A stretch of 32,000 nt of DNA from Oscillospiraceae bacterium (GCA_018110905.1 JAGBAZ010000064.1:63249-95248); one strand, 5' to 3'. Shown: positions 4,273 to 20,869, counted from the first letter of the stretch. The notes: generated from the sequence alone by a model not told the origin. Program-made: numbers and translations.

Positions 4273-4840
4273 AATAAAAAATAATAATGTTAATCAAGAT
4301 AATTCTAACAATAACATGGTTGAGCAATACAAATTTGTTTATGAGCAAGTAAAAAGTTGGATTGAAAACGCCGACAATAAAGTTAACATCTCTTGCGCAC
4401 TATTTTTTGGAATATTTACAGTTATCACTTTCCTTTCGGAAAAATGTATTGCTGTTCCAGAAAACTCTGTAGTTAATAAGTGTTTTGAAGGAATCTATAC
4501 CTTTTGTTTTGTTGCAAGTATAGTTTCAGCTTTTATTGCTTTGTTATATTATGCTTACTCAATTTTCCCCAATCTTAGTAGTAATGAAACTGATAGCAGC
4601 CTAAAAAGGTATCCAATATTTTTCGGCGATATTGCTTCTATGAGTGCAGAAGAATATAGAAATAAAATACAGAAGGGTACGGACTCTTTATTTGCTGACG
4701 AATTAATTCTTGAAACACATATGAACTCAAAAATTTGTTTGAACAAAATGAAAAGATATAGAATAGGGTTAATATTATCCCTTATTACAGTTGTTTTCTC
4801 AATGTTAAGTTTTGGGGCACATTTTATGATGTATAGATAG
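4250..4840 (+). CDS. 3-TM membrane protein, PycTM/DUF5706-like candidate effector
   Basis: I prefer ATG 4250 (GAAAGG upstream; 23-nt overlap with the previous gene) over the track start 4172. Layout: amphipathic helix ..VKSWIENADNKVN, TM1 ISCALFFGIFTVITFL, TM2 IYTFCFVASIVSAFIALLYYAYSIF, soluble ..MSAEEYRNKIQKG..LILETHMNSKICLNKMKRYR, TM3 IGLILSLITVVFSMLSF. This matches my memory of the Pycsar TM effector family. Confidence 0.6.
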   Translation: MKKRILAKIKNNNVNQDNSNNNMVEQYKFVYEQVKSWIENADNKVNISCALFFGIFTVITFLSEKCIAVPENSVVNKCFEGIYTFCFVASIVSAFIALLYYAYSIFPNLSSNETDSSLKRYPIFFGDIASMSAEEYRNKIQKGTDSLFADELILETHMNSKICLNKMKRYRIGLILSLITVVFSMLSFGAHFMMYR

Positions 4841-4897
4841 AAATATTTAAGGAAAAATCTTTTATATCCCCCAAAATATATTATGCTTCCAGCATAG

Positions 4898-4926
4898 TTT
4901 ACAAAAACTGACATTAGTATTATAAT
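4898..4926 (+). promoter_or_regulatory. sigma-A type promoter of the TIR operon
   Basis: TTTACA (4898-4903), exactly 17 nt, TATAAT (4921-4926), located 50 nt upstream of ATG 4977. Confidence 0.6.
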
Positions 4927-4976
4927 AAAAATATCTATAACTCCCATTAAAATGTAAATTTGAGGAGGAACTTGCT

Positions 4977-7418
4977 ATGGCAGTTATGAAATGTAAAATG
5001 TGCGGGGGAGATCTTGAAATTGAGGAAGGCATGAGCGTTGCTGTCTGCGAATATTGCGGAACAAAGCAGACTGTTCCGACCCTCGATAACGAAAGAAAAA
5101 CCAGCCTTTTCGGCAGAGCCGGAAGGCTTTTGCGTGCGTGTGAATTTGACAAGGCCTCAGTGGTCTTCGGCGATATCGTTTCGGAATTTCCGGAAGAAGC
5201 CGAAGCTTATTGGGGCCTTTTGCTTTGCAAATACGGCGTTGAATACGTTGATGACCCGGCAACCGGAAAGAAAATTCCCACCTGCCACCGTCTTTCTTTC
5301 GAAAGCGTAATGGAAGACAGCGATTTTGAACAGGCTTGCGAAAATGCGGATTCCGTTGCAAGGGGAGTTTACCGCGAAGAGGCAAAATTCCTTGAAAATC
5401 TCCGCAAAAACGTAATCGAGGTTTCCAGCAAGGAAGAACCTTACGACGTTTTCATCTGCTATAAAGAAACCGATCCGAACGGCGACCGCACCATCGACAG
5501 CGTTATGGCGCAGGACGTTTATGATGCCCTTACCGAAAAAGGCCTTCGTGTTTTCTTTGCAAGAATCACCCTTGAGGATAAACTCGGAATGGAATATGAG
5601 CCTTATATTTTTGCGGCTCTCAACAGTGCAAAAGTCATGCTTGCAATCGGTACCGATTACGAGTATTTCAACGCTGTCTGGGTAAAGAACGAATGGAGCC
5701 GTTTCCTCAAGCTCATCGCAAAAGGCGAAAAGAAAGTGCTGATTCCTTGCTATAAGGATATCGACGCTTACGACATGCCGAAGGAATTCAAAAACCTTCA
5801 GGCGCAGGATATGGGTAAACTCGGATTCATGCAGGACCTTGTCCGTGGTGTTTGCAAAATTCTTGGAGTTGATGAGAAGAAAGAGGCTGTTGTTGAAAAG
5901 ACCGTTGTAAAAGAAACGGTTGTAAGCGAAAAAGTTATAAATGTTAGTACTTCAAAAGCGGAATCACTTGCAAAACGAGGTTTTATGGCTCTTGAAGATA
6001 GAGATTGGGAAAAAGCGAGAGAATATTTTAATGATTCACTTAATGAAGATGCGGAATATGCAATCGCATACCTTGGTCTTGATATGTGCACCAAATGTGT
6101 TTCGACGGATGAAAGATATGCTAGAATTCTTGATAAAAATAATAAAAATTATGTAAGAGCAAAAAAATTTGCCAAGGGAGCAGCATTAGAAAGAATTACA
6201 AAAATAGAAAAAGCAAATAGTGATTTTGTTGAAGAAAAAAGAAAAGCCGAAAAGAAGAAACAAGATGAAGAAAGAAGAAAGGCGGAAGAAAAAAATCAGA
6301 AGGAAAATATAATAAAAGCCAAGCTGAAAGAATATCTTTCTGATGCTTCTCTTTTGGGTAAATTTGAACACGATAAAAATATTGATTTAGAGATAGCTAA
6401 ACTGAGAGAAGATGCTGATTTATACAGAGACCTGTATTATTCGTTGATTAAATCAGAGGATGCAAAACGGAAATTTGATATGTCAAAAGAAAAAAACAGA
6501 CTAGAAACTCTGAAAGAAGAAAAATCCAAGCTTGGTTTCTTTGCTGGTAAGGAGAAAAAAAGACTTCAGAAAGAAATTGAAGAGACTGAAAATTTAGTGA
6601 AAGCTCTTAATTACAAAGAATCAGAAAGCAATGCACGAAAAGCTATTGCGGAAAAAGAAAAAGAAAAACAATCTCTAAAGAAAAGCACAGAAGAATTTAT
6701 TCTGTTTATGCAGCAGAATGATGTTGGAGCGGTAGTAAAAAAATATAACGATGATAGAATAAAAAAATATGAAAGCTATCTTCCAAATAAAGTCAGAGTA
6801 AATTGCTTTGACAGTATAATAATGGGAAAATATGTTGGTCAACCTATCGAATGGAAAATACTTGCCGTGGAAAATAATAAGGCATTACTTATAAGTAAAT
6901 ATGCGCTTGATGCACTTCCTTTTGATGAACGACTTTATGGAGATGTTTTTTGGGAAAATTGCAGTTTGAGGAAGTGGCTTAATAATACTTTCATTTCTTC
7001 TGCATTCACAGTAAAAGAACGCACATCAATTTTGCTAACAACAATTGATGAAACAAATCCAAGAAATTTTGGATTAATAAAAACCAACGATAGAATATTT
7101 CTTCTTAATAAAAGAGAAGCAGAAAAATATTTTTCTTCAGCAAAAGACAGAGATTGCGTAGCGACATCATATGCAAGATCTGTAATGCAATCAAAAGAAA
7201 ACTGGAGTCCATATGCCCCTAAATATTCTTCTCAAACGAGCTCTAATGGTTCGTGTTGGTGGTGGCTTAGATCAAATAATTGTGAAAGTTCTTATAGAGA
7301 TTCTTACGATTCTATTGAAATTGTACAAGGTGGATATATTGGTGATATGAGAAGTTTTCCGTCTACTTATCCAAATGGCGCAGTCCGCCCTGCTATGTGG
7401 ATAGACCTTGATGTTTGA
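4977..7418 (+). CDS. zinc-ribbon / TIR-domain protein, paralog A; C-terminal WWWLRS-motif domain
   Basis: RBS GAGGAGG 4962-4968. Zinc ribbon CKMCGG..x13..CEYCG; helical module EAEAYWGLLLCKYGVEYVDDP..PTCHR; TIR-like DVFICYKETD..ALNSAKVMLAIGT..AVWVKNEWSRF (Glu codon 239, nt 5691-5693). Then a K/E-rich coiled coil. The C-terminus has IEWKILAVENNKALLISKYAL..SLRKWLNN..CWWWLRS..VRPAMWIDL, which I believe is the family named DUF6273. Confidence 0.85.
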   Translation: MAVMKCKMCGGDLEIEEGMSVAVCEYCGTKQTVPTLDNERKTSLFGRAGRLLRACEFDKASVVFGDIVSEFPEEAEAYWGLLLCKYGVEYVDDPATGKKIPTCHRLSFESVMEDSDFEQACENADSVARGVYREEAKFLENLRKNVIEVSSKEEPYDVFICYKETDPNGDRTIDSVMAQDVYDALTEKGLRVFFARITLEDKLGMEYEPYIFAALNSAKVMLAIGTDYEYFNAVWVKNEWSRFLKLIAKGEKKVLIPCYKDIDAYDMPKEFKNLQAQDMGKLGFMQDLVRGVCKILGVDEKKEAVVEKTVVKETVVSEKVINVSTSKAESLAKRGFMALEDRDWEKAREYFNDSLNEDAEYAIAYLGLDMCTKCVSTDERYARILDKNNKNYVRAKKFAKGAALERITKIEKANSDFVEEKRKAEKKKQDEERRKAEEKNQKENIIKAKLKEYLSDASLLGKFEHDKNIDLEIAKLREDADLYRDLYYSLIKSEDAKRKFDMSKEKNRLETLKEEKSKLGFFAGKEKKRLQKEIEETENLVKALNYKESESNARKAIAEKEKEKQSLKKSTEEFILFMQQNDVGAVVKKYNDDRIKKYESYLPNKVRVNCFDSIIMGKYVGQPIEWKILAVENNKALLISKYALDALPFDERLYGDVFWENCSLRKWLNNTFISSAFTVKERTSILLTTIDETNPRNFGLIKTNDRIFLLNKREAEKYFSSAKDRDCVATSYARSVMQSKENWSPYAPKYSSQTSSNGSCWWWLRSNNCESSYRDSYDSIEIVQGGYIGDMRSFPSTYPNGAVRPAMWIDLDV

Positions 7419-7465
7419 ACCGAATAAATGTTTCTGAATTTTAACGATTGAATAGAGGTAATAAT

Positions 7466-9286
7466 ATGGGAAAATTTGTTATTGAATGTCCGAACTGCGG
7501 AAGATATGTTGAAGCCAAAACCGGCTTCTTCGCAAAAAAGAAAATTGACTGCGTTTGTGGTCATACAATCAACGTAAAAACCGAAAAATTCGCTTCCAAA
7601 GTCTGTGCTCATTGCGGAAACACCGTTGTTTTCGATCAGAGCAAAGGCGACGACGCAATCTGCCCGGTCTGCCATGAAAAAATCAATACACGGGAGGATA
7701 TGAACAACATCGCGGAATTTACCTGCCCTTCCTGCAACTGCAAACTTACCGCAGATAAATCCGCCGTAAGCTATACCTGTCCTCTTTGCGATACCGTAAT
7801 CGACGTTCAGGAAAGAATCGCAAAAGAAAACGTTAAAAACCAGGGCCTTGCAAGCGTAATCAAATACGAAGGCGACAACAACACCTTTGTATGGAAGCAC
7901 CCCATCGAGGACTTTAACCTCGGTTCCCAGCTTATCGTTCACGAATCCCAGGAAGCGATTTTCTTCCGCGACGGAAAAGCGCTCGACCTTTTCGGAGCGG
8001 GTCGCTATACCCTTGCAACCCAGAATATTCCGCTTCTGGAGGAACTTTATAAACTCCCCACCAATGCTGATGAGGTTTTCCATTCCGAGGTCTATTTCGT
8101 AAATATGACCACCCAGATGGGAATCAAATGGGGCACCGACAGCAAGGTAAGACTTTTTGACCCTGCTTCCGGCTTACATATCGAAATCGGCGCCTGCGGC
8201 AATTTCAGCCTCCGTGTTTCCGATTCCAGAAAGCTTCTTGTAAAACTTGTTGGCACTATGCCGGAATTCAACCAGCACGATGTTATGGGTGTTGAGCCTT
8301 TCGGAATCCAGGTTGTTGTGGGTAAATTCAAGGCTCTTGTTATGAACAAGGTCAAATCCAACCTTGCAAAAGTTATCAAAGAAAACGATATCAACATTCT
8401 TGAAATCGACGCATATATTGACCTTCTTTCCGAAAAACTCCGCGTTGTTATCAACGAAACCCTTGCGGAATACGGTCTTACCATGCCGGAATTCTTCATT
8501 ACTTCCGTTATGACCCCGGACGACGACCCCAACTACAGAAGACTTAAACAGCAGTTCGCCGACAGAACTCTTAAAGTTCGCGAGGAGGAAATCCGCAAAG
8601 CGGAAGCTGAAGCTGCCCACGCAAGAAAACTTGTTGAAGCACAGACCGAAGCACAGCTTAAAATTGTCGGTGCGCAGGGCGAAGCGGAAGCACTTAAGAT
8701 CCAGGCCGCTGCAGAAGCCGAAGCATACAAGGCACAGGCGTTTGCCGAAGCGGAAGAAATGCGAGCAAAAGGCTATACCTATCAGCAGGAAACCGCAAGA
8801 ATGGTCGGAATGGAAGCTATGCAGAACGGCATAACCGGCTCCGGAGATTTTGGCGGCGGTTCTTCCATGCTCGGCGATATTGCAGGCCTTGGAGTAACTC
8901 TCGGCGCCATGGGCGGCGTTATCGGCATGACCAAGGAAGCACTTGACCCAATCATGAAATCCACTTCCGAAATCGGCGCAGGCGTTGTTGCCGCCGCTGT
9001 TTCTGCGGAAGCACCCGCCGCACCGGCAAATGATACATGGGACTGCGCATGCGGTTGCAAAGGAATAAAATCCAAATTCTGCCCCGAATGCGGTGCAAAG
9101 AAACCCGAACCGCCGGCAGCATGGGATTGCCCGGCTTGCGGACTTAAAGGCATAACCTCAAAATTTTGTCCGGATTGCGGAACGAAGAAACCGGAAGCAC
9201 CTGCCGTTTGGAACTGCCCTGAATGCGGATGCCAGGGAATCACTTCCAAGTTCTGCCCGGACTGCGGACATAAAAGGGAGGGTTAA
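7466..9286 (+). CDS. SPFH/band-7 (YdjI-like) protein with three N-terminal and three C-terminal zinc ribbons
   Basis: Start moved to ATG 7466 (AGAGGT upstream; the track start 7448 is TTG). N-terminus has CPNCG..CVCG, CAHCG..CPVC and CPSC..CPLC. The core VIKYEGDNNTFVWKHPIEDFNLGSQLIVHESQEAIFFRDGKALDLFGAGRYTL is typical of the 'virion core protein-like' SPFH family. An Ala/Glu coiled coil and a Gly-rich segment follow, then three CxxC..CPxCG repeats. Confidence 0.85.
   Translation: MGKFVIECPNCGRYVEAKTGFFAKKKIDCVCGHTINVKTEKFASKVCAHCGNTVVFDQSKGDDAICPVCHEKINTREDMNNIAEFTCPSCNCKLTADKSAVSYTCPLCDTVIDVQERIAKENVKNQGLASVIKYEGDNNTFVWKHPIEDFNLGSQLIVHESQEAIFFRDGKALDLFGAGRYTLATQNIPLLEELYKLPTNADEVFHSEVYFVNMTTQMGIKWGTDSKVRLFDPASGLHIEIGACGNFSLRVSDSRKLLVKLVGTMPEFNQHDVMGVEPFGIQVVVGKFKALVMNKVKSNLAKVIKENDINILEIDAYIDLLSEKLRVVINETLAEYGLTMPEFFITSVMTPDDDPNYRRLKQQFADRTLKVREEEIRKAEAEAAHARKLVEAQTEAQLKIVGAQGEAEALKIQAAAEAEAYKAQAFAEAEEMRAKGYTYQQETARMVGMEAMQNGITGSGDFGGGSSMLGDIAGLGVTLGAMGGVIGMTKEALDPIMKSTSEIGAGVVAAAVSAEAPAAPANDTWDCACGCKGIKSKFCPECGAKKPEPPAAWDCPACGLKGITSKFCPDCGTKKPEAPAVWNCPECGCQGITSKFCPDCGHKREG
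9032..9286 (+). repeat. three tandem in-frame zinc-ribbon repeats (~28 aa each) at the SPFH C-terminus
   Basis: DTWDCACGCKGIKSKFCPECGAKKPEPP / AAWDCPACGLKGITSKFCPDCGTKKPEAP / AVWNCPECGCQGITSKFCPDCGHKREG. Confidence 0.9.
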
Positions 9287-9289
9287 TCA

Positions 9290-10009
9290 ATGAAATTCAG
9301 TTTTAACGAACTTGGCAAAAAAGAAAAATCCGTTCTTCTTGTTTACGGAATTGTAGCGTTCATCTGTATTCTTGCATTCATCATTATTCCTTTCCCGAAA
9401 AGCGCTTCCAGCTGGCTTGCGCTTTTGTTCCTACTTGTTTCTTTCTGCGTAAGCCTTTATGCGATGAAACTTGCTTTTGAAAACGGAAAAGAGATCATCA
9501 GCAAAATTTACGGTTTTCCGATTTTCAAAATCAGCGTTTATTACGTTGCTGCCCAGGCAATTTTCAGCGTTCTTGTATGCGTTGTTGCAAGCTTTATCAG
9601 ACTGCCTTATTGGGTAACTCTTCTTGTTTCCGTAATCCTTCTCGGCGCAGCTGTTATCGGAATCGTTATTACCGATAACGCAAGGGATATTATCGAAGAT
9701 ACCGAAAAGAAAGACGTTCGTGATACAAAGAAAATCACTCTTTTCAAAATTGATATTGCCGGAATTGTTGACCGCTGCAAAGACGAAACCGCAAAGAAAG
9801 AACTTGAAAAACTTTCCGAAGCATTCAGATACAGCGACCCGGTTTCCAGCGATGCAACCAAGGAACTTGAGGACGAAATAACCGAAGAACTTGAGGAACT
9901 CAAAAAAGAAGTTGCCGAAAACGATGTGGAAGATATCATCGAAAAAGCAACCGAAATTTCCAACCTTCTTGCAGAAAGAAACAAAGTTTGCAAGGCGTTT
10001 AAGAAGTAA
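9290..10009 (+). CDS. 4-TM membrane protein with acidic helical cytoplasmic tail
   Basis: ATG 9290 lies 3 nt after the SPFH stop, preceded by GGGAGGG. Four hydrophobic helices (VLLVYGIVAFICILAFIIIPF, WLALLFLLVSFCVSLYAM, ISVYYVAAQAIFSVLVCVVASFI, YWVTLLVSVILLGAAVIGIVI) are followed by a D/E/K-rich tail. Confidence 0.8.
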   Translation: MKFSFNELGKKEKSVLLVYGIVAFICILAFIIIPFPKSASSWLALLFLLVSFCVSLYAMKLAFENGKEIISKIYGFPIFKISVYYVAAQAIFSVLVCVVASFIRLPYWVTLLVSVILLGAAVIGIVITDNARDIIEDTEKKDVRDTKKITLFKIDIAGIVDRCKDETAKKELEKLSEAFRYSDPVSSDATKELEDEITEELEELKKEVAENDVEDIIEKATEISNLLAERNKVCKAFKK

Positions 10010-10030
10010 TCAAACAAGGATGCGTTGTTT

Positions 10031-10477
10031 ATGACAGTAAAAGAAGCAAGCCACATTTTTAATCTTGATGAAAAAGAAATTAGAAAAAGAAAACAAGATG
10101 ATATGATTATAGGTGTAAGAAAAGACGGAAAGTTTATTTTTATACCAGATGATACAAAGATTATACCGTCTAAAATAGAAATTAAAGCTTTTTTGTTAGA
10201 AATAATTAAGTATAAAAATAATGATAAAATTGTGTTGGATAGAAGTTTATGCCCAAATAACGACACTTTAATTGCTATTGCAGAATATCTTTATAAAAAA
10301 GGCTTTATCGGTGAATTTGATTATTTTAATAACGCTTACAATTTTTTTGATGAAGTAAAACTCACCGACAAAGGTATAGAGTTCATATTTGAAAAAGAAT
10401 CACAAAAAATTGCCAAATACCAATTTTTTCCCATTCAACTGAACCCAAATAATTCTTTAGTAAGTTTAACATTGTAA
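10031..10477 (+). CDS. small protein with excisionase/MerR-type HTH-like N-terminus
   Basis: ATG 10031 (the track start 10025 is TTG). MTVKEASHIFNLDEKEIRKRKQDDMIIGVRKDGKFIFIPDD resembles the Xis-type winged HTH (..tvkEaa..lgvs..tirr....g.i....g....ip..). The gene is visibly more AT-rich than its flanks. Confidence 0.55.
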   Translation: MTVKEASHIFNLDEKEIRKRKQDDMIIGVRKDGKFIFIPDDTKIIPSKIEIKAFLLEIIKYKNNDKIVLDRSLCPNNDTLIAIAEYLYKKGFIGEFDYFNNAYNFFDEVKLTDKGIEFIFEKESQKIAKYQFFPIQLNPNNSLVSLTL

Positions 10478-10499
10478 AAAATTTTGCGGAGGCATAAAC

Positions 10500-13127
10500 A
10501 TGTCAGTTTTCAAATGTAAAATGTGCGGCGGCGACCTTGAGGTCACCGAAGGAATGAAAGTAGTCGAATGTGAATATTGCGGAACGACCCAGACCGTTCC
10601 GAACAGCGACAACGAAAAGAAAACGAATCTTTTCAACCGCGCAAACAGACTCAGAATCGCAAACGAATTTGACCGCGCGGCAGGCGTTTATGAAAATATC
10701 ATCTCCGAATTTCCCCGGGAAGCAGAAGCTTACTGGGGCCTTTGCCTTTGCAAATTCGGTATTGAATATGTAGATGACCCGAGAACGGCGGAAAAAATTC
10801 CAACCTGCCACAGAACTGCATTTGAAAGCATTTTTGACGACAGCAACTTCAAAACTGCCATTGAGCTTTCCGACCCGGTCGCAAAGAAAGTGTATAATTC
10901 CGAAGCAAGGATAATCGATACTCTTCAGCAGAACATTCTCACCATCGTAAACCGCGAAAAGCCTTTTGACGTTTTCATCTGCTACAAAGAAACTGATTCC
11001 AAAGGCGACAGAACCATGGACAGCGTTCTTGCACAGGATATCTATGATGCCTTGACCGCAAAAGGACTCAAGGTTTTCTTTGCACGCATAACTCTTGAAG
11101 ACAAGCTTGGTCAGGAATATGAGCCCTACATATTTGCGGCTTTGAACAGCGCAAAAATCATGCTTGCCATCGGCACCGCAGAAGAATACTACAATGCTGT
11201 CTGGGTCAAGAACGAATGGAGCAGATTTCTTTCTCTTATGAAGACCGACAGAAGCAAGGTGCTTATTCCTTGCTATAAAGATATCGACGCATACGATATG
11301 CCTGCTGAGTTCAGAAACCTCCAGGCACAGGATATGGGCAAACTCGGCTTTGTTCAGGATCTTACCAGAGGTGTCTGCAAAATCCTTGGGGTTGAGGAGA
11401 AGAAAGAAACTGTTGTTGAAAAAGTTATCGTAAAAGAAGTTATAAAAGAAAGAGTTGTTGGAGCAAGTACACAAAATATTCCGAACATAAATGTAAGCGG
11501 GATTCTTGATTTGGCGTTCGAAGATCTTAAAAATGGAAAATATTTTGAAGCGAGTAAATCTGCGGGAAAGGCGATTGGATTCGACCCGGCTAATGTCAGA
11601 GCGCATCTTTGCAAGCTTTGCGCAGAAATGAGAGTTAACGATATTGAAAAACTTTCCGAGTCGGAAAAAGGTAATATAGAAGATAGCGATTATTACAAAA
11701 ATATACTTTGCATAGCTGATGATGATCTTAAAGAAAAATTAAAAAAACAAGCAAAAATACAAAAAGCAAGATTTGAAGAAAGAAAGCGCAAAGAAGAGGA
11801 ACGCATCGCGGGAGAAAAAAGAAAAGAACAAGAAGAAATACACATTTTTAATGAAAAATGGGAAATAGAAAAAGTTTCTAAGTTTGAAACAGCTGATAAT
11901 TTATTAAGAAATGCAAAAAGGCTGTCAGATTATGATAAAATCAAAGAACTTTTTGTCGGATATGAAGAAATGGACGAAGTAAAAAATCTTTTAGAAGAAG
12001 TGTCCGCACAAAAAAGAGAATGTTACAGAAAGATTGTAAAACATGTTGAAAGTCAGCTTTCTTTTGGCAATCCACATATCGTTTTTCTTAATAAAGGACA
12101 TGCTTATGTTTCAGGTAAATCAACAACTGCGGCATGTGTTAAAAAAAGTGAACTGTGGAATTTAGACAGCATTTGTTTTGTGCTTGACCATTATGATAAT
12201 AATCAGCAGTGGCCGGAATTTGGATTTATCGGCTTTAAAAAGACTGGTGAAATCACTCAGACTAAAGATTCTGATAATGTGAATTCTGAATATAAAAAAA
12301 GTCCGGATTATGATTTTTCGGACTGTACTGAGATAAAAAAAGTATTGGTTTTTGAAGAAAAAGACTATATTACTCTTAAAATCGATGGAACTGTAGTAAA
12401 AAAAGGCGACTATAGCGAAAAAATTTCTCAGTGGAAAGATATTATCGATATCTCGACAAGCGGTAAACATATTGTAGGTTTAAAATCTGATGGTACTGTT
12501 GTTGCAGTAGGAGAAAACGGCAGTAAACAATGTAATGTTTCTGAATGGAAAGATATAGTTGCAATTGAAACTTCTGAAGAGAATACTTTAGGTGTTAAAC
12601 GAAACGGAACTGTTGTGCAAACAGGAAATAAATATGATATTTCAGATTGGAGAGATATCGTAATTGCTGCTAGTGAACGTGATGGTGATATAACAGCACT
12701 TCAAAGCAATGGGGAATTGGTGCATAAAAATAGAAACCAGTCTCGTTATAATTTTAAAAAAGGAAAGATTGCGGGAGTTTTTGCGAATAACTTTAATACA
12801 GTTGTAATTTATTTTGACGGAAGTGCCGAAATTAAAGGAATAGACAACAATAAGCAATGTAACTGTTGGGCGTGCAAGATATTTGATGATGCGGAAGAGT
12901 TTGCGGAACAAAGAGAAAAAATGCTGAAAGAACGGTATGAAAAGAAAATGAGAGAAAAAGCTGAACAGGAAGCCGCCCGCAAAGCTAAAATTGAGTCTCT
13001 TGAAAAAGAAAAAGCAACCCTTGAAGCGGAACTCTCCAACATAAAAGGCCTTTTCAGCGGTGGCAAAAAAGCAAAAGTTGAAGCAAGAATTGCGGAAATA
13101 GAAAAAGAACTCCAAACCTTGAAATAA
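10500..13127 (+). CDS. zinc-ribbon / TIR-domain protein, paralog B; C-terminal RCC1-like repeats
   Basis: RBS GCGGAGG. It has the same N-terminal chassis as paralog A (Glu codon 239 at 11214-11216). The C-terminus carries beta-propeller-type repeats (HIVGLKSDGTVVAVGENGSKQCNVSEWKDIVAIE.., LGVKRNGTVVQTGNKYDISDWRDIV..) and a terminal coiled coil. Confidence 0.85.
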   Translation: MSVFKCKMCGGDLEVTEGMKVVECEYCGTTQTVPNSDNEKKTNLFNRANRLRIANEFDRAAGVYENIISEFPREAEAYWGLCLCKFGIEYVDDPRTAEKIPTCHRTAFESIFDDSNFKTAIELSDPVAKKVYNSEARIIDTLQQNILTIVNREKPFDVFICYKETDSKGDRTMDSVLAQDIYDALTAKGLKVFFARITLEDKLGQEYEPYIFAALNSAKIMLAIGTAEEYYNAVWVKNEWSRFLSLMKTDRSKVLIPCYKDIDAYDMPAEFRNLQAQDMGKLGFVQDLTRGVCKILGVEEKKETVVEKVIVKEVIKERVVGASTQNIPNINVSGILDLAFEDLKNGKYFEASKSAGKAIGFDPANVRAHLCKLCAEMRVNDIEKLSESEKGNIEDSDYYKNILCIADDDLKEKLKKQAKIQKARFEERKRKEEERIAGEKRKEQEEIHIFNEKWEIEKVSKFETADNLLRNAKRLSDYDKIKELFVGYEEMDEVKNLLEEVSAQKRECYRKIVKHVESQLSFGNPHIVFLNKGHAYVSGKSTTAACVKKSELWNLDSICFVLDHYDNNQQWPEFGFIGFKKTGEITQTKDSDNVNSEYKKSPDYDFSDCTEIKKVLVFEEKDYITLKIDGTVVKKGDYSEKISQWKDIIDISTSGKHIVGLKSDGTVVAVGENGSKQCNVSEWKDIVAIETSEENTLGVKRNGTVVQTGNKYDISDWRDIVIAASERDGDITALQSNGELVHKNRNQSRYNFKKGKIAGVFANNFNTVVIYFDGSAEIKGIDNNKQCNCWACKIFDDAEEFAEQREKMLKERYEKKMREKAEQEAARKAKIESLEKEKATLEAELSNIKGLFSGGKKAKVEARIAEIEKELQTLK

Positions 13128-13145
13128 AATCCGGAGGACAGAAAA

Positions 13146-15584
13146 ATGGCAGTATTCAAATGTAAAATGTGCGGCGGTGACCTTGAGGTCACCGAAGGAA
13201 TGAAAGTAGTCGAATGCGATTTCTGCGGAACGACTCAGACTGTTCCCACTGTAAAAGATGAAAATATTCAGAGCCTTTTCAACAGGGCAAATACTCTTCG
13301 TATGAAGTCCGAATTTGACAAAGCGGAAGCAATTTATGAAAAAATCGTGCAAGCAAAAGAGGACGAATGCGAGGCATATTGGGGTATAATTCTCTGCCGC
13401 TATGGTATTGAATATGTGGAGGATCCTAAAACTTTCAAGCGTATCCCCACCTGCCACAGAACTTCCTACGATTCCGTAATTGCGGACGAAGACTATAAAT
13501 CCGCAATAAAATATGCCGATCTCGTCCAGAGAATCGTTTATGAAAACGAGGCAAAGGAAATTGACCGTATTCAAAGGGAGATTCTCGAACTTTCCCAAAA
13601 AGAAGAGCCTTACGACGTTTTTATCTGCTATAAAGAAACGGATTCTGCCGGAAGACGCACTGTTGACAGTGCCATCGCCAACGATATTTACTACCAGCTT
13701 ACCCAGGAAGGCTATAAGGTTTTCTATGCCGCTATCACCCTTGAGGACAAGCTGGGTTCTGCTTATGAACCCTGCATTTTTGCCGCGCTCAATTCCGCAA
13801 AAGTTATGCTTGCCATTGGTACAAAACCGGAATATTTTAATGCCGTCTGGGTGAAAAACGAATGGTCAAGATATCTCCGCCTTATGAAAAACGACCGCAC
13901 AAAACTGCTTATTCCTTGCTATAAGGATATGGATGCCTATGAACTTCCGGACGAATTTGCGCATCTTCAGGCGCAGGATATGGGCAAAATCGGTTTTATC
14001 AACGACATTGTCCGCGGAATCAAAAAGGTTATTGTAAAAGATGAGCAGAAAGCACCAGCTTTTACTGCCGCCGCAGTAGCATCTGCACCTGCAGGAAATG
14101 CTGCACCTCTTCTCAAACGCGCATTCATATTCCTTGAAGATGAGGAATGGGAAAGTGCTGATGAATACTTTGAAAAAGTTCTGGATATGGATCCGGAATG
14201 TGCAGAAGCATATCTTGGAAAACTTTGCGTTGAGCTTGAAGTTACTGATATTGATGAGCTTTCAAACATTAATGATGATTTTGAAAACAGAGCAAATTTC
14301 AAGAAGGCTATTCGTTTTGCAACCGGTGAAGCAAAAAAGAAAATTGATGCGATAATTGAAAACAAAAAGAACAGAATAGAAGAAGAAAAACGCAAAAAAG
14401 AAGAGCAGCTTGCGGAGAAAAAACGCCTTGAGCAGGAAAAAAAGAAAAAAGAGAAGTACTTATTTTTGATTGACAATGTAGAAACATCAACAAATTTTGA
14501 CAGTTTGGAAAATCTTTATCACAGACTGCTTGCTTTGGGAGATTATTTGGATGCGCCCAAATATGCAGAAGAATGCCGTATAAAGATGGAAGAATATGAA
14601 GTCATAGACCGAATTTGGAAAGAATATTCCGAAGCATATGCCGAATATAACTCTGCAAGAAAGGCTCTAGATAACGTTAAAGAAAAATTTTGCAGTGTTG
14701 AAAGTAATTTGACTATCTGGATAAGCGAATTTGAAACTGTTTCTGATGCACGTAATAAATTATTGGATATCGATAAAGAAATTACAGAAACATATAACAG
14801 AATAGTTTTTCTTGCAAAAGAAAAGGAAAATCTTGGAGTTTTTGCTTTTTCAAAAAAGAAAGAAATTTCCGATGAAATTGAAAGACTGGAAGCAAAAAGA
14901 CAAAGGTTGGAATGTGACAGGAAAAAATATAATTCTATAGTTACATGTTCCAAAACAGAAGAAGAATTTAGAGAAAAAATAAAAACTGCAGAGGAAAGCA
15001 AACAATCTGTAGAAAATGAACAGGCTTTTCTTCAGGAAAAAGAAAAAGAGTTCAAAAATAGTTTCGATATTGTAACTGAAAAAGTACTTGATAAAAATGT
15101 ACTTATTAAATTATTTAATTACCAAAATGCAGGTGATGTTCTGCTTTTGAATGAGAGAATAAAGGAATATATTTCGAACGATGAAGAACTTTCCGGACAA
15201 ATAAATACAAACATGGATTATGTGGATGCGGTATCTGATATAGAAGAAATATATTTTGAAGCCTGTGCTCTTCTCAGCAATACCCGTATAAGTAATTCTG
15301 CCGAGCTGGCGCTTGAAAAATTCATGTCTATAAAAGGATATAAGGATTCCAAATTAAAAATTGAAGAATGCAAGAAAAAACTTGGAAAGAACACCGTAAA
15401 ATCAATAAATAAATCCAATACACATAAAAGTATTACGAACGAAAAACGCTGTCCATATTGTGGCTTTTCCTTAGATAATAAAGTGGAGAAATTATTGGAT
15501 CTTTATTTGGAGGGGGAAGATGTTAAATGTCCGGAATGCGGCAGGCTCTTTGATGATGATATAATGATGAAAATTTTAGATTAA
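13146..15584 (+). CDS. zinc-ribbon / TIR-domain protein, paralog C; long coiled coil and C-terminal zinc ribbon
   Basis: RBS GGAGGA; 18-nt gap after paralog B. Same chassis (Glu codon 239 at 13860-13862). The C-terminal half is predicted helical/coiled coil and ends with CPYCG..x22..CPECG. Confidence 0.85.
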   Translation: MAVFKCKMCGGDLEVTEGMKVVECDFCGTTQTVPTVKDENIQSLFNRANTLRMKSEFDKAEAIYEKIVQAKEDECEAYWGIILCRYGIEYVEDPKTFKRIPTCHRTSYDSVIADEDYKSAIKYADLVQRIVYENEAKEIDRIQREILELSQKEEPYDVFICYKETDSAGRRTVDSAIANDIYYQLTQEGYKVFYAAITLEDKLGSAYEPCIFAALNSAKVMLAIGTKPEYFNAVWVKNEWSRYLRLMKNDRTKLLIPCYKDMDAYELPDEFAHLQAQDMGKIGFINDIVRGIKKVIVKDEQKAPAFTAAAVASAPAGNAAPLLKRAFIFLEDEEWESADEYFEKVLDMDPECAEAYLGKLCVELEVTDIDELSNINDDFENRANFKKAIRFATGEAKKKIDAIIENKKNRIEEEKRKKEEQLAEKKRLEQEKKKKEKYLFLIDNVETSTNFDSLENLYHRLLALGDYLDAPKYAEECRIKMEEYEVIDRIWKEYSEAYAEYNSARKALDNVKEKFCSVESNLTIWISEFETVSDARNKLLDIDKEITETYNRIVFLAKEKENLGVFAFSKKKEISDEIERLEAKRQRLECDRKKYNSIVTCSKTEEEFREKIKTAEESKQSVENEQAFLQEKEKEFKNSFDIVTEKVLDKNVLIKLFNYQNAGDVLLLNERIKEYISNDEELSGQINTNMDYVDAVSDIEEIYFEACALLSNTRISNSAELALEKFMSIKGYKDSKLKIEECKKKLGKNTVKSINKSNTHKSITNEKRCPYCGFSLDNKVEKLLDLYLEGEDVKCPECGRLFDDDIMMKILD

Positions 15585-15608
15585 ACTTAACAAGGAAGTG
15601 TTCATAAA

Positions 15609-18224
15609 ATGGCAGTATTCAAATGTAAAATGTGCGGCGGAGCACTTGAAGTAAATAACGGCGAAAGCGTTGCAGTATGTGATTATTGCGGCACTAAACA
15701 GACTTTGCCGAAAACCGATGACGGCGTTGTTGCAAATCTTTTCAACCGCGCAAATAATCTTCGCCTTAAATGTGAATTCGATAAAGCGGAAGCAATCTAT
15801 GAGAAAATTCTTGAGCAGGACAATACCGAAGCAGAAGCTCATTGGGGCATAATTCTCTGCAAATACGGCATTGAATACGTTGAAGATCCGAAAACTTTTG
15901 AACGTATTCCCACCTGTCACAGAACTTCCTATGAATCCATAACCGCAAGCGCAGAATACCTTGCAGCGCTTGAGCATGCGGATTCTGTGCAGAGAGAAGT
16001 CTATGAGCACGAAGCTAAAGCAATTGATTCTATCCAGAAGAACATTTTGAGCATCGTCAAAAACGAAAAGCCATTCGATGTTTTTATCTGCTATAAAGAA
16101 ACGGACGAAAATGGAAAACGCACTGTTGATAGCGCCATCGCCAACGATATTTACTATCAGCTTACTCAGGAGGGTTTTAAAGTTTTCTATGCCGCAATCA
16201 CCCTTGAGGACAAGCTCGGTCAGGAATATGAACCTTACATATTTGCCGCTCTTAACAGTGCAAAGGTTATGCTTGCAATCGGAACAAAGCCGGAATATTT
16301 TGAAGCGGTATGGGTCAAAAACGAATGGAGCCGTTTTATGAACCTTATGAAAACCGACCGTTCCAAGCTTCTTATTCCTTGCTATAAGGATATGGATGCT
16401 TACGATCTGCCGGAGGATTTTGCTCACCTTCAGGCGCAGGATATGGGTAAAATCGGTTTTATCAACGATGTAGTCCGCGGCATCAAAAAGGTTATTGTAA
16501 AAGATGAGCCGAAAGTGGTTGCACCGGTTGTTACAAAAGTTGTCGCTTCTTCCGGAAGTGAACCGAACACCGCCCAGCTTCTCAAGCGTGCATTTATGTT
16601 CCTCGAGGACAGGGAATGGGAAAGCGCGGACGAATACTGTGAAAAAGTTCTTGACCTCGATGCGGAAAATGCAGAAGCATATCTTGGAAAGCTTATGGCG
16701 GAACTCAGAATCAGTAAAAAAGAATATTTGAGTAGTTGTTCTGACCCGTTCGACAACCGAAACAATTACAAAAAAATAATTCGTTTCGGTGATGAAAAAC
16801 TTTGTGAGGAACTTAAGAGTTATAACAAGCAAATCAGAGAGCGCAACGAACTGAACCGTAAAAATGTAATTTACAACGCCGCCTGCGGATTTATGAATTC
16901 AGCAGAATCTGAAGATGATTATAAAGAAGCGGCTGCAAAATTTGGCGAAGTTTTGAACTTTAAGGACGCAAAAGCAAGAAAAGAAAAGTGCATTGATTTG
17001 GCAGAAGAAGCAAGAAAAGAAACAATTTACCAGCAAGCAGAGAGAAAATATAGTTGTTCTTCATTTGCTGAAGCTGCAGAAACATATGGAAAAATATCCG
17101 GGTATAAAGATTCTGATAAAAGAAAAAAAGAGAGCCTTGAAAAAGCTGAGGATGAACGAAAAAATTCAATTTACCTCGAGGCATGCGAATATAAAAATAC
17201 ACAAACTATTGCTGGATATAAATATGCAATAGAAAAATTTGAAACGATTTTGGAGTGGCGAGACGCTTCTAATCAAATAGAAATTTGTAAAGACAGGATT
17301 TGCATACTTGAACAAAAGGAAGAAAAAGCAAGAATCGAAGCACAGCATAAAGCCGAAGTGGATAGAATTGCGGCAGAAAAGAGAAAGAAGAAAAATAAAA
17401 TAATGGCAGCAATCGTGACGTCAATCGCACTTATTTCTATTGCTGCAATCGTTGTGTTTATAACTGTAATTCAGCCGCAGAACGAATATAATGCTGCTGT
17501 TGCTCTTGTGGAAGAAGGAAAATATGAAGAGGCGTATAATATTTTTATTAAACTTGGAGATTATAAAGATTCTGCTGAAATAGTGTCTAGTGTCCGTATA
17601 CAAAAAATTAAAAATCTTGGAGATATAAAAATCGGTGATGAAATAATACTAGGAGCGTATGAACAAGATAACGATACATCTAATGGCAAAGAAGAAATAA
17701 AATGGATTGTTATTGATTCAAATGGTGGTAAAATTCTTGTTATAAGCAAATATGCCCTTGATTGTAAACCATTTAATACCAAAAATGAAAACACTACTTG
17801 GGAAAAATGTACTCTTCGTAGTTGGTTGAATAATGATTTTTTGAATTTTGCTTTTTCTGAAGCTGAAAAGGAAGTTATTCCAACAATGGTAATTGCGGGA
17901 GCTTGGAATAGTGAACAAAAAACAAGTTCTGGTAATAATACTCAAGATAAAATCTTCTTATTAAGTATAAGTGAGACGGATAAATATTTCAAAACTTATA
18001 AAGATAAATTATGTAAACCGACAGCATATGCTATAGCTAATGGGGCGTTTGCTGACGAATCAAAAGGAAATTGTTGGTGGTGGCTTCGCTCTTTTGGAAA
18101 TGCCCAAAATTTAGTTGAGTATATTAACTATAAAAATACGGATCAAAAGAACAGTTTTAATGTGGATTTTGCCCGGTGTGCTGTCCGCCCCGCAATGTGG
18201 ATTGATTTATCGGCAGTGGAATAA
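15609..18224 (+). CDS. zinc-ribbon / TIR-domain protein, paralog D; single TM helix and C-terminal WWWLRS-motif domain
   Basis: RBS AAGGAAG; 24-nt gap after paralog C. Same chassis (Glu codon 239 at 16323-16325). Repeated ..GYKDS/..FKDA helical repeats. TM helix IMAAIVTSIALISIAAIVVFITVI (nt ~17403-17470) is preceded by KRKKKNK. C-terminus: IKWIVIDSNGGKILVISKYAL..TLRSWLNN..CWWWLRS..VRPAMWIDL. Confidence 0.85.
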   Translation: MAVFKCKMCGGALEVNNGESVAVCDYCGTKQTLPKTDDGVVANLFNRANNLRLKCEFDKAEAIYEKILEQDNTEAEAHWGIILCKYGIEYVEDPKTFERIPTCHRTSYESITASAEYLAALEHADSVQREVYEHEAKAIDSIQKNILSIVKNEKPFDVFICYKETDENGKRTVDSAIANDIYYQLTQEGFKVFYAAITLEDKLGQEYEPYIFAALNSAKVMLAIGTKPEYFEAVWVKNEWSRFMNLMKTDRSKLLIPCYKDMDAYDLPEDFAHLQAQDMGKIGFINDVVRGIKKVIVKDEPKVVAPVVTKVVASSGSEPNTAQLLKRAFMFLEDREWESADEYCEKVLDLDAENAEAYLGKLMAELRISKKEYLSSCSDPFDNRNNYKKIIRFGDEKLCEELKSYNKQIRERNELNRKNVIYNAACGFMNSAESEDDYKEAAAKFGEVLNFKDAKARKEKCIDLAEEARKETIYQQAERKYSCSSFAEAAETYGKISGYKDSDKRKKESLEKAEDERKNSIYLEACEYKNTQTIAGYKYAIEKFETILEWRDASNQIEICKDRICILEQKEEKARIEAQHKAEVDRIAAEKRKKKNKIMAAIVTSIALISIAAIVVFITVIQPQNEYNAAVALVEEGKYEEAYNIFIKLGDYKDSAEIVSSVRIQKIKNLGDIKIGDEIILGAYEQDNDTSNGKEEIKWIVIDSNGGKILVISKYALDCKPFNTKNENTTWEKCTLRSWLNNDFLNFAFSEAEKEVIPTMVIAGAWNSEQKTSSGNNTQDKIFLLSISETDKYFKTYKDKLCKPTAYAIANGAFADESKGNCWWWLRSFGNAQNLVEYINYKNTDQKNSFNVDFARCAVRPAMWIDLSAVE

Positions 18225-18235
18225 GGAGTGATAAA

Positions 18236-18433
18236 ATGCCGAACTTAAGTCAGATGCAGGGTGTTTCTGCACATTTGGAAACGCTTAAAGCAAAAGATTC
18301 CCGAAGGCATCCTGCACATTGTATTTTTGCAGAGGGAAAAGGTATAAACCGCGTTTGCACCTGCCCTCAATGCGAAATTTATTTACAGCATTGTGGAACT
18401 GCAAAGCTGTGTGGATATTATGAAAAGAAATAA
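18236..18433 (+). CDS. small Cys-rich hypothetical protein (65 aa)
   Basis: Strong RBS AAGGAG lies 7 nt before ATG 18236, 11 nt after the paralog D stop. Six Cys and several His (..HCIFAEG..CTCPQCEIYLQHCGTAKLCGYY). No family recognised. Confidence 0.5.
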   Translation: MPNLSQMQGVSAHLETLKAKDSRRHPAHCIFAEGKGINRVCTCPQCEIYLQHCGTAKLCGYYEKK

Positions 18434-18449
18434 TTAGCTGTTTACAGAA

Positions 18450-19030
18450 AACGCCGAGCCAAGCCTGCTTTACAGGAAGGTGTAACGACTGGACACGGAG
18501 CAACCCAAGCGGTTGAAGGCACAGTCTGAACTTGCAGGTGACTGCAAGAGCCACACAGAAATGATGTGGCCTCCGCGAAAGCGGTGTAACAAAATTGAAA
18601 ATTAATGTATGTCAAAAAAATAATGACAAAAATTAAGAAATTCGCCTCCACTGTTTTCGCAGCAGTGAGCGAATAGCTTAAGACGGTAACAGCGAATATA
18701 GGTTCCGCAATCATCAGCGAACTAATAGCTGATGCGATAATAAAACAATTTAGTGTAGGTTCTGTTGAGCGTACATAGGCAAACGCTGAATTTATTTGTG
18801 CGATAGTTTTTTTGATATTGTTGTTAGTACAAAAGACTATAGAAAACTATAACAACCTCCTGGAAAACCGTAAAGCCGCAATAACGGTTGACAGAAAAAA
18901 CTGCGGTAAATATTTAAATATGGAGGTAAGAAAGTTGCCTCCCTACACAGTAATGTGTAGCAAACAACTCCGTAAATTCGGTGAAACTCTGTATGCAATG
19001 ACCGGTATAACAATTTGTTTATACCGGTCA
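18450..19030 (+). ncRNA. candidate structured RNA or DNA-structure region (ORF-poor, hairpin-dense)
   Basis: No convincing ORF on either strand. Plus-strand hairpins: CTTGCAG-GTGA-CTGCAAG (18531-18548), GCCACA..TGTGGC (18550-18570), CCGC-GAAA-GCGG (18573-18584), GACTG..CAGTC (18487-18526) enclosing CAACC-CAAGC-GGTTG, TTCGC..GCGAA (18656-18673), CATCAGC..GCTGATG (18712-18734), GGAGG..CCTCC (18922-18942), CTACACA-GTAA-TGTGTAG (18943-18960) and ACCGGTATA..TATACCGGT (19001-19028). Three loops are GNRA only when read on the + strand. Confidence 0.3.
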
Positions 19031-19038
19031 TTCTTTTG

Positions 19039-19374
19039 TTAAATCTCCTCCGGCAAAAGTACCGCTTCCTCGATTTTTGTAATCGCTTTGCAAAACTTTT
19101 CAAAATTCTGGTTGTATTTTTCCGCGTCGATGTTTCCGGTAGCGTTTGCAATTCGCGCGATCTGGTTTAGGTTGTTTCCGATTCCGTAAAGCTGACGCAT
19201 CATGCTCCAGAAAACCTCGTCCGGGTTTGCTTTCGGAACATAACCATTTATATACATTCGGATATATGTTTCCTTCGGAAGTCCTGCCTTTTTTGCGTTT
19301 TTCTCAAGAGTTTTCATCTCAGTTTCATAGAGGCGGACTTTTACGGATTTGGTTCGTTTTCTCATTCTTATCAC
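19039..19374 (-). CDS. mobC: MobC-family relaxosome accessory protein
   Basis: ..RTKSVKVRLYETEMKTLEKNAKKAGL..YGIGNNLNQIARIANATG.. is the RHH plus IGNNLNQIAR signature of the MobC family. No relaxase ORF follows it. Confidence 0.8.
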   Translation of the reverse strand: MIRMRKRTKSVKVRLYETEMKTLEKNAKKAGLPKETYIRMYINGYVPKANPDEVFWSMMRQLYGIGNNLNQIARIANATGNIDAEKYNQNFEKFCKAITKIEEAVLLPEEI

Positions 19375-19391
19375 TCCTTTCTGTTGGGGTT

Positions 19392-20845: not shown

Positions 20846-20869
20846 AACGTCCTCTCCTTCGTACTTGTT

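Follow-up and report, generated by a model that had tools for sequence, protein, structure and literature searches.

The 32,000-nucleotide stretch analyzed here (JAGBAZ010000064.1:63249-95248; hereafter the window), part of a 123.7-kb contig of an Oscillospiraceae metagenome-assembled genome (MAG), carries a string of genes in which large TIR-domain proteins are encoded together with an SPFH protein and a protein with four transmembrane (TM) helices (4TM). As judged by its recurrence in other genomes, the unit is a three-family core consisting of SPFH, 4TM, and one to five genes for zinc-ribbon (ZnR)-TIR proteins. Homology searches further indicate that this gene set is very widespread in gut Clostridia and is not an oddity of one mobile element. 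We lean toward the view that its three obligate parts form a membrane-docked TIR receptor module that would act against phages.

The string comprises eight co-directional open reading frames (ORFs) spanning 4977-18433 on the + strand. Intergenic gaps are 3-47 nt, and a purine-rich Shine-Dalgarno-like motif stands 5′ of every start. The NCBI annotation of the encoded proteins (contig proteins MBQ5329530-MBQ5329536) does not go beyond 'TIR domain-containing protein' or 'hypothetical protein'. An earlier sequence-only reading of this DNA had described the same layout and proposed that the whole operon is a multi-sensor TIR immune system. Inspection of ORFs and starts bears out the strand, the gaps, the ribosome-binding motifs, and the positions of all eight ORFs. 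The TIR fold, the diversified protein tails, and the conservation of the SPFH/4TM/TIR set also stand; the immune role is still a matter of interpretation, and the eight-gene unit does not survive because a 150-aa ORF and a 65-aa ORF fall outside the core.

TIR domains on a shared chassis

Four of the eight proteins, TIR-A through TIR-D (812-875 aa), are 60-76% identical over residues 1-300 and unalignable beyond, as expected from the original description of four paralogs around a common chassis of ~300 aa. The Pfam family TIR_2 (PF13676) scores above its cut-off in all four (41.3-43.9 bits versus 28, aa 158-280) and matches each of the 57 family members sampled. Residues 1-310 of TIR-A were modeled with AlphaFold from an alignment of 41 homologs (pLDDT 86.9, pTM 0.79). 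The resulting model opens with a four-strand zinc ribbon (aa 2-32) followed by three helices (aa 39-85), continues with a β-hairpin (aa 88-103) with the invariant residues C84, C103, and H104 and two further helices (aa 115-151), and ends in a flavodoxin-like TIR domain (aa 158-296). When this model is compared with the PDB by Foldseek, all 11 matches at E <= 0.001 are TIR domains, with flax L7, SARM1, RPS4, MAL, AbTir, and MyD88 at the top and SPARTA lower in the list. Target-normalized TM-scores against isolated TIR-domain entries range from 0.51 to 0.74. A phmmer search of the chassis against the PDB gave no TIR match, the sole match in a profile search of the chassis against the PDB was the tetratricopeptide repeat (TPR) that follows it, and BLASTP against a SARM1 TIR sequence gave nothing usable. 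Because the modeled fold matches TIR structures, we regard the assignment of the central domain of the four paralogs as settled: it is, by profile and predicted structure, the TIR domain that had been suspected from sequence.

A candidate catalytic glutamate had been placed at codon 239 of all four paralogs, and a GAA codon is indeed present at each of these sites (Table 1). Glu239 is invariant among 41 and among 57 aligned homologs, and the surrounding motif WV[KR]NEW occurs in 146 of 149 representatives (50% identity clusters, the best 149 of 5,153). In the TIR-A model the residue lies in a predicted helix after strand βC. The motif has the form W-x-x-x-E, in which the catalytic Glu of SARM1 and of plant TIRs resides, and the family profile aligns Glu239 with the Glu of 'WCVRELEKI' in the RPS4 TIR. 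Because the score of this alignment is weak, we consider Glu239 a likely, but not proven, catalytic residue. No NTPase domain of the NB-ARC, NACHT, or STAND type is found by Pfam in the four paralogs or the 57 family members.

The paralogs appear to differ in how they reach the membrane. The single TM helix of TIR-D is preceded by basic residues (KRKKKNK) and followed by neutral or acidic ones. Because the basic stretch precedes the helix, the TIR domain is predicted to lie inside and the DUF6273 domain outside. TIR-D should therefore be oriented N-in/C-out, with a cytosolic TIR and an extracellular lectin-like domain, which is the topology of a Toll-like receptor (TLR). At least one TM helix is predicted after the chassis in 62 of 149 family representatives. 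TIR-A, TIR-B, and TIR-C have, instead of a TM helix, a segment that we call the GLF-basic motif (e.g., KLGFFAGKEKKRLQKEIE), which follows the approximate pattern (L/K)G(L/I/V)F(A/S)G, then three basic residues, then a heptad-like stretch. A hidden Markov model (HMM) built from the motif and scanned over the 149 representatives finds it in 40 of the 87 without a TM helix and in 0 of the 62 with one (Fisher p=3e-12), such that the two are never found together. Within the surveyed loci the HMM confines the motif to TIR-family ORFs; BLAST also detects it in a TIR-less ZnR/TPR protein described below. These patterns suggest that GLF-basic may be an alternative device for attachment to the membrane or to a platform.

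Topology also bears on the idea that these proteins are directed at a host or a competitor, either as TIR mimics like TcpB/TcpC or as polymorphic toxins whose tail chooses the victim. Bacterial TIR proteins that interfere with host TLR signaling exist, and this family is abundant in gut and rumen commensals. However, no signal peptide and no secretion-system gene was found in or near the loci, the TIR of TIR-D is on the predicted cytoplasmic side of its TM helix, and the enzymatic part, at the N-terminus, is predicted to be cytosolic, whereas the variable part is a binding domain and not a toxin. An obligate linkage to a cytoplasmic SPFH protein would likewise have no role in such a scheme, and we find it hardly credible.

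A conserved core with exchangeable tails

The SPFH protein is 612 aa long if translation begins at TTG, but an ATG at 7466 is the likelier start, and the NCBI protein differs from the TTG-start translation. Its Band_7_1 match (136.9 bits versus a cut-off of 24) accompanies an SPFH domain at aa 155-390, an Ala/Glu-rich coiled coil, and a Gly-rich segment. Ten CxxC motifs are split evenly between the two ends, and the C-terminal five make up three tandem ribbon repeats. Hydropathy analysis reveals no TM helix or hydrophobic segment. The SPFH region weakly matches the cage-forming protein QmcA, and a profile-profile comparison of the TIR N-terminal module with the SPFH N-terminal zinc ribbons finds no homology between them.

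The adjoining 4TM protein includes a cytoplasmic helical domain of ~110 aa in which SDPVS and ERN..CK are invariant among 39 orthologs. It has no Pfam family match, and its AlphaFold model (pLDDT 75) has no structural match in the PDB at E < 0.3. One homolog gives sub-threshold matches to NfeD_membrane (E=0.007) and DExH14_plug.

Two samples of loci were used to establish how regularly these genes occur together. The TIR-anchored sample was obtained by a chassis search with one genome per species, keeping the best 80 of at least 551 matches; these 80 loci come from Oscillospiraceae, Ruminococcus, Lachnospiraceae, Blautia, Christensenellales, Acutalibacteraceae, and a few other groups. Clustering of their ORFs yields as recurrent families ZnR-TIR (139 ORFs in 80 loci), SPFH (44), and 4TM (41). 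Where a genome locus extends at least 8 kb on each side, an SPFH gene is present in 21 of 26 cases. The SPFH-anchored sample was drawn from metagenome contigs with the SPFH profile. Where the flanks reach 3 kb or more upstream and 3.5 kb or more downstream, a ZnR-TIR gene and a 4TM gene lie on the strand of the SPFH gene in 35 of 35 loci, and the 4TM gene adjoins SPFH in 63 of 65 loci with at least 1 kb downstream. Three long contigs picked via SPFH homologs have the same arrangement. The commonest order is SPFH-4TM-TIR with additional TIR genes on either side, and only L048 and L050 depart from a co-directional core. The linkage of ZnR-TIR genes to SPFH and 4TM, on which the sequence-only reading had staked its case, thus passes strongly in both directions, and the core is taken to be SPFH, 4TM, and at least one TIR because nothing else recurs across the loci.

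The family is also large. Chassis identity is 70-79% between proteins from Oscillospiraceae, Lachnospiraceae, Christensenellales, and other Clostridia, and a search with the chassis returns more than 3,000 clusters (90% identity). With the N-terminal 149 aa as the query, 5,153 clusters (50% identity) are matched, 2,279 with an E-value below 1e-30, and a TIR domain is present in 149 of the best 149 of these matches. SPFH homologs account for at least 7,996 clusters at 90% identity. Cultured strains with the set include Pseudoflavonifractor capillosus An827 (L011) and Blautia sp. HCP3S3_H10_2 (L014), L053 and L076 are examples of loci with just three genes, and the match in Allobaculum stercoricanis is to a 4TM homolog only.

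Beyond the chassis, the TIR proteins of the family (600-1,400 aa) end in highly diverse tails. Among 57 family representatives, TPRs occur in 39, RCC1 in 15, DUF6273 in 8, BspA-type leucine-rich repeats (LRR) in 3, LRR_8 in 3, ankyrin repeats in 2, and WG repeats in 1; LRRs are found in ~5% of sampled members. The tails of 2 of the 57 contain a ribosomal protein L7/L12 C-terminal domain, which would be an odd choice of sensor. The DUF6273 copies of TIR-A and TIR-D also match phage families, a Hoc-like one among them. DUF6273 has a C-type-lectin-like fold, is employed by phage receptor-binding proteins, and is a target of diversity-generating retroelements (DGRs) (PMC10743442).

How tails are renewed can be seen by comparing the window with L004, a contig from a closely related Oscillospiraceae MAG. 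The two are 95% identical in DNA over 4865-5932, 96.8% over 7455-10026, and 92.8% over 10493-11775, whereas the C-terminus of TIR-A (the 5933-7454 region) is unrelated between them. Because L004 is near-identical in the chassis but not in the tail of TIR-A, recombination breakpoints must lie just behind the chassis, and the contrast is direct evidence of cassette replacement at that point. The G+C content of TIR-A is ~46% in the chassis and ~31% in the tail. Tandem paralogs are 64-75% identical in nucleotide sequence over 900 nt, so that there is plenty of matching sequence for cassettes to be exchanged.

Diversification of the DUF6273 tails by a DGR was considered as well and rejected: neither the window nor L167, the closest relative, contains a template repeat/variable repeat (TR/VR) pair. 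The window contains no reverse transcriptase (RT) and no repeat pairing with the 3′ ends of TIR-A or TIR-D. An RT does adjoin L167, yet this locus lacks a TR/VR pair, and the RT together with its PRTase-CE partner looks like a separate retron-type system.

Accessory genes and genomic surroundings

The features of the window are collected in Table 1.

Table 1. Features of the window. Positions are counted from its first nucleotide; the gene string is listed first, then its surroundings.
Feature	Position (nt)	Strand	Details
Candidate sigma-70-type promoter, TTTACA-17-TATAAT	4898..4926	+	Best + strand match in 4000-19500, 11/12 positions
TIR-A, 813 aa	4977..7418	+	TIR_2 2.5e-10 (aa 158-280); DUF6273 1.7e-22 (aa 633-810); zinc ribbon, helical module, coiled coil, GLF-basic motif; no TM helix; NCBI MBQ5329530.1
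Candidate catalytic Glu of TIR-A, GAA codon 239	5691..5693	+	Motif W-V-K-N-E-W
GLF-basic motif of TIR-A, aa 510-544	6504-6608	+	Motif HMM
SPFH/Band_7_1 protein, 612 aa from TTG	7448..9286	+	Band_7_1 9.7e-40; DZR-type zinc-ribbon matches
4TM protein, 239 aa	9290..10009	+	Four TM helices (hydropathy); starts 3 nt past SPFH stop
150-aa ORF	10025..10477	+	Variable accessory slot after 4TM; one homolog (L040, 51% identity) among 82 loci
TIR-B, 875 aa	10500..13127	+	TIR_2 1.1e-10; RCC1_2 2.7e-5, repeats around aa 646-711
GLF-basic motif of TIR-B (C-terminus), aa 839-874	13014-13121	+	Motif HMM
TIR-C, 812 aa	13146..15584	+	TIR_2 3.9e-11; TPR, coiled coil, C-terminal CPYC...CPEC zinc ribbon
GLF-basic motif of TIR-C, aa 556-584	14811-14897	+	Motif HMM
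TIR-D, 871 aa	15609..18224	+	TIR_2 4.1e-11; TPR, single TM helix, DUF6273 7.1e-28
TM helix of TIR-D, aa 600-618	17406-17462	+	Hydropathy peak 2.78
DUF6273 of TIR-D, aa 707-866	17727-18206	+	Pfam 7.1e-28
Equivalent GAA codons 239 in TIR-B, TIR-C, TIR-D	11214, 13860, 16323	+	Codon positions computed
65-aa Cys-rich ORF	18236..18433	+	Six cysteines; ends gene string; no profile match
Terminator-like hairpin	18997..19032	+	14-bp stem then T-run; closes 560-nt non-coding stretch
PycC cyclase (Pycsar)	2306-3667	+	PADLOC; directly upstream of operon
207-aa ORF	3649-4272		Between/overlapping PycC and PycTM; no profile match
PycTM (Pycsar)	4172-4840	+	PADLOC
STAND/NB-ARC-type NTPase, 775 aa	22362-24689	-	C-terminal TPRs; N-terminal ~180 aa unassigned
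Integrative-element backbone	656-1027, 19606-22173, 25797-27386, 28358 onward		TnpV, IstB-like ATPase (174 aa), RepA_N, ParM/ALP-like, large serine recombinase abutting rpsB/tsf

The promoter named in the sequence-only reading turned out to be the top consensus match on its strand. It lies inside the stretch of 4865-5932 that is 95% identical to L004, and 4872-5079 is repeated 5′ of a second TIR gene in L004 at 83% identity. At the other end of the string, 560 nt (18434-18996) without a convincing ORF separate the 65-aa ORF from the terminator-like hairpin, which is likely the 3′ boundary of the transcription unit. An Rfam scan of the whole window, including this non-coding tail, gave no match.

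Conservation argues that the 150-aa and 65-aa ORFs are lineage-specific extras outside the core. The former, for which a helix-turn-helix (HTH) identity had been proposed by appearance alone, has no match in Pfam, PADLOC, NCBIfam, or PHROG, such that this label is unconfirmed; the gene is also absent from L004 (10027-10492 region). The 90% identity cluster of the 65-aa ORF has 11 members, and no homolog is found in the 82 surveyed loci. The L167 contig encodes one 68-aa member (P0544), and immediately after the last TIR gene there comes an ORF of 68 aa.

Other loci hold other genes at these places. The accessory slot of L167 (12563-13978) encodes a 471-aa protein with an N-terminal zinc ribbon, TPRs, and a GLF-basic motif and no TIR domain; this protein may be a TIR-less decoy or adaptor paralog. 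Weakly HEPN-like (pEK499_p136) proteins of ~200 aa follow 4TM in other loci, in the slot of the 150-aa ORF, and genes for SIR2_2/AbiH-like and DUF2971 proteins lie within clusters, mostly just 5′ of SPFH. SIR2_2-like genes are inside six related loci, where they are not accompanied by SLOG. Extra genes within clusters are those at L015 12722-13648, L040 13065-14360, L014 9138-9983, L033 12541-13278, L082 7198-7776, and L084 12595-13179. Immediately 5′ of the first cluster gene, which in most cases is a TIR gene, 14 of 80 loci (e.g., L008 9774-10010) encode a ribbon-helix-helix (RHH) protein of ~80 aa (ISMRLPKDMLRDIDAVA..GRTRNEI) that the window lacks. This protein is a possible transcriptional regulator of the system, and no further recurrent family was found among the flanking ORFs of the 80 loci.

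The operon had also been described as cargo on a mobile element, next to other immune-type modules. Both statements are upheld by the genes found: those for TnpV, RepA_N, ParM-like, IstB-like, and serine recombinase proteins on the one hand, and a PADLOC-recognized Pycsar pair (2306-4840) and a STAND-TPR protein on the other. The STAND protein has no PADLOC match and may be an Avs-like sensor with an effector domain of an unfamiliar kind. The large serine recombinase abuts rpsB/tsf. Probably the right end of the integrative element is near 27.4-28.3 kb, and the left end is beyond the window.

Elsewhere, L167 is flanked by the retron-like RT and PRTase-CE pair and by a Fic/Phd pair. In L085 and in L083 (IMG/VR UViG_3300023505_000289), the system occupies an accessory slot at the end of a prophage, beside endolysin/holin genes and tandem large serine recombinases, and L085 has a type I restriction-modification system nearby. 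Abi_2 and an integrase are near L084, and a resolvase, toxin-antitoxin pairs, and DUF4062 are near L086. Carriage by phages must be rare because the chassis matches only 1 of 2.9 million viral contigs.

Possible function and relation to known systems

What the analysis shows is a conserved set of genes, a TIR fold with its motif, membrane features, and swapped cassettes. From these we infer docking, NADase activity, a trigger, and an anti-phage role. The SPFH protein, flotillin/YdjI-like and studded with zinc ribbons, would form a platform with 4TM on the cytoplasmic face of the membrane. One to five receptor-enzymes would dock to this platform via their conserved N-terminal zinc-ribbon/helical module, and each would be kept at the membrane by its own TM helix or GLF-basic motif. 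The C-terminal sensors (an RCC1 propeller, DUF6273, TPR, and zinc ribbon here; LRR and ankyrin repeats elsewhere) would face the cytoplasm or, in TIR-D, the exterior, and would recognize a phage component or an envelope perturbation. Ligand binding might then cluster the TIR domains into a composite active site, with Glu239, that cleaves NAD+. The outcome could be NAD+ depletion or an ADP-ribose-derived signal that opens or activates 4TM/SPFH, such that the infected cell arrests its growth before the phage cycle ends. Tandem paralogs would broaden the range of triggers, and recombination of C-terminal cassettes would yield new specificities.

A defense context is consistent with this proposal. 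Pycsar lies upstream in the window, defense-type genes are near L167, L085, and L084, the system is at a prophage end in L085 and L083, and SIR2_2/AbiH-like, DUF2971, and weakly HEPN-like genes are embedded in clusters.

Several observations weigh against an anti-phage receptor module. A chassis identity of ~75% across bacterial families is unusually high for an arms-race gene. The immediate neighbors are mostly housekeeping genes, e.g., for tRNA synthetases and acetyltransferases, with scattered defense matches (148 flanking ORFs of 80 loci, Pfam and PADLOC); we do not claim enrichment for defense because this survey of neighbors is mixed and has no usable baseline. There is no nearby SPFH gene in 5 of the 26 well-flanked TIR loci. 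The pairing of Glu239 with a known catalytic Glu is a weak profile match. PADLOC models match 0 of the 8 operon proteins, and a 2025 survey of defense-island TIR systems refers neither in its text nor in its supplements to SPFH, to Band 7, to zinc ribbons, to RCC1, or to DUF6273, a silence that may mean that the family failed a defense-enrichment filter. Finally, neither 4TM nor SPFH has a recognizable nucleotide-binding or pore domain by Pfam or PDB structures, and the effector step is guesswork for this reason.

Chassis conservation is high and housekeeping neighborhoods are frequent, and for these reasons a serious, if rather improbable, rival is a non-immune module for envelope surveillance or signaling in Clostridia, analogous to PspA-YdjGHI. 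In such a module SPFH and 4TM would sense the state of the membrane, and the TIR receptors would link cues from outside the cell or from its cytoplasm (glycans, cell-wall fragments, neighboring cells) to NAD+-linked physiology. DUF6273, BspA-type LRR, and RCC1 are common in gut-Firmicute surface proteins, and YdjI/YdjG/YdjH are a stress-response SPFH protein with zinc-ribbon and membrane partners (PMC8581546). However, neither PspA nor any other stress-response gene is recurrent in the loci, and the genomic location is not conserved between species. Copy number ranges between 1 and 5, and loci that are otherwise near-identical have exchanged C-terminal cassettes. Furthermore, the system is carried by an integrative element in the window and lies at prophage ends in other loci, and defense-type genes (SIR2_2, DUF2971, HEPN-like) are embedded in its clusters. 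An envelope-sensing role, if true, would be a new physiological role for SPFH proteins and bacterial TIRs.

A different division of labor is conceivable, and we give it limited credence. As in Thoeris, the TIR proteins might serve only as sensors that make a diffusible nucleotide derived from ADP-ribose, and 4TM, gated or caged by an SPFH oligomer, would be the shared effector that permeabilizes the membrane. Many TIRs beside one invariant partner pair is the Thoeris layout, and the presence of SPFH and 4TM in 35 of 35 SPFH-anchored loci is hard to explain with self-sufficient NADases. The invariant polar SDPVS and ERN..CK of 4TM could form a ligand site, and membrane-spanning effectors of unknown fold are common in new Thoeris types (10.64898/2025.12.03.692087). 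Against this stand the lack of any SLOG, Macro, SAVED, CARF-like, or other known signal-binding domain by Pfam and PADLOC, a 4TM model that matches nothing in the PDB, and the failure of Thoeris models (ThcB4 reaches 22.6 bits against a cut-off of 220). In addition, a diffusible signal needs no docking, and ThsB is accordingly small and diverse; here, by contrast, the non-catalytic N-terminal module is the best conserved part, which speaks for a physical complex.

SPFH/4TM may serve as a scaffold or as the effector, and killing may come from NAD+ loss or from a TIR product that acts on 4TM/SPFH. We favor some shared downstream component because of the layout of many sensors with one partner set and the obligate presence of SPFH/4TM, and we favor physical docking over a purely diffusible signal because the non-catalytic N-terminal module is so extremely conserved. 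It is tempting to go further, and only tentatively do we suggest that the set may represent a new class of innate immune receptor complex, in which TIR arrays, some with TLR topology, are docked on SPFH/4TM by a zinc-ribbon adaptor module of their own and renewed by cassettes, and in which the platform rather than a diffusible nucleotide couples recognition to killing. If true, this would be a bacterial counterpart of raft-organized TLR signaling and a new organizing principle for TIR immunity.

Animals, plants, and bacteria all use TIR domains in innate immunity. To our knowledge, characterized bacterial TIR systems pair the TIR with a soluble or simple membrane effector. What is distinctive here is that TIR enzymes are obligatorily tied to an SPFH/flotillin-type scaffold, have diversified receptor-like tails, and in many members place the sensor, by prediction, outside the cell. 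We know of almost no experimentally characterized defense systems from human-gut and rumen Clostridia. Given the thousands of sequence clusters, a membrane-docked receptor module that acts against phages would be a significant share of the immune repertoire of the gut microbiome and a tractable model for membrane platforms that organize TIR signaling.

The operon had originally been compared with Thoeris and said to fit no named defense system and to lack a SIR2, SLOG, or Macro effector. The latter two statements hold: PADLOC has no match, the only NCBIfam hit (June 2026 release) is TIR-D to ThcB4 at the sub-threshold score given above, and Pfam and PADLOC find no SIR2, SLOG, or Macro domain in 4977-18433, nor caspase-like, DUF2270, SLATT, or other known Thoeris effector domains. 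A search for literature that combines SPFH or flotillin with TIR and defense found no description of such a set, and a systematic survey of TIR signaling systems from December 2025 lists 29 putative Thoeris types (10.64898/2025.12.03.692087). The likeness to Thoeris applies to the layout, with several TIR genes beside one invariant non-TIR partner set in one operon, and extends to a conserved catalytic-type Glu and to the defense-island or prophage context of some loci. It does not extend to membership. The partners here are SPFH and 4TM, without a described Thoeris effector domain, PADLOC and NCBIfam Thoeris models remain below threshold, and the TIR proteins are large, with a conserved ZnR/helical N-terminal module and repeat-type C-termini, whereas ThsB is small.

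The SPFH and membrane partners recall two other arrangements. In Bacillus subtilis, the Band 7 protein YdjI, which has a C-terminal zinc finger, needs YdjG and YdjH for membrane localization and for recruitment of PspA (PMC8581546), and YdjG carries a zinc ribbon (10.1101/2021.02.15.431232). By description, the present set is similar in that its Band 7 SPFH protein ends in a zinc finger, has no TM anchor of its own, and is encoded alongside integral membrane partners and a zinc-ribbon-first protein. It differs in that no PspA/ESCRT-III gene is in the window or recurrent in the 80 loci, and in that its zinc-ribbon proteins carry TIR domains and sensor repeats. SPFH-NfeD and HflK/C-FtsH pairs likewise place an SPFH gene near-contiguous (3 nt here) with a gene for a small multi-pass membrane protein, and the weak matches of the 4TM homolog to NfeD_membrane and of SPFH to QmcA are in keeping with this parallel; unlike those pairs, there is no NfeD OB-fold, protease domain, or protease client here.

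Eukaryotic TIR receptors (TLRs, plant TIR-NLRs, and SARM1) differ from the present proteins in that the TIR is N-terminal here, the reverse of their order, no NB-ARC/STAND module is present, and the ectodomains are mostly DUF6273 or RCC1, with LRR in ~5%. Nevertheless, both fuse a TIR domain to variable ligand-binding repeats, the closest structural matches of the TIR-A model are plant, SARM1, and MyD88/MAL TIR domains, and a single TM helix is predicted in TIR-D and ~40% of the family, which would place the TIR inside and the binding domain outside, as in TLRs. This resemblance is architectural and does not imply common descent of the architecture. By gene content and profile scores, the set lies outside Thoeris and every other named system, and it is perhaps best regarded as a putative relative of TIR-based defenses.

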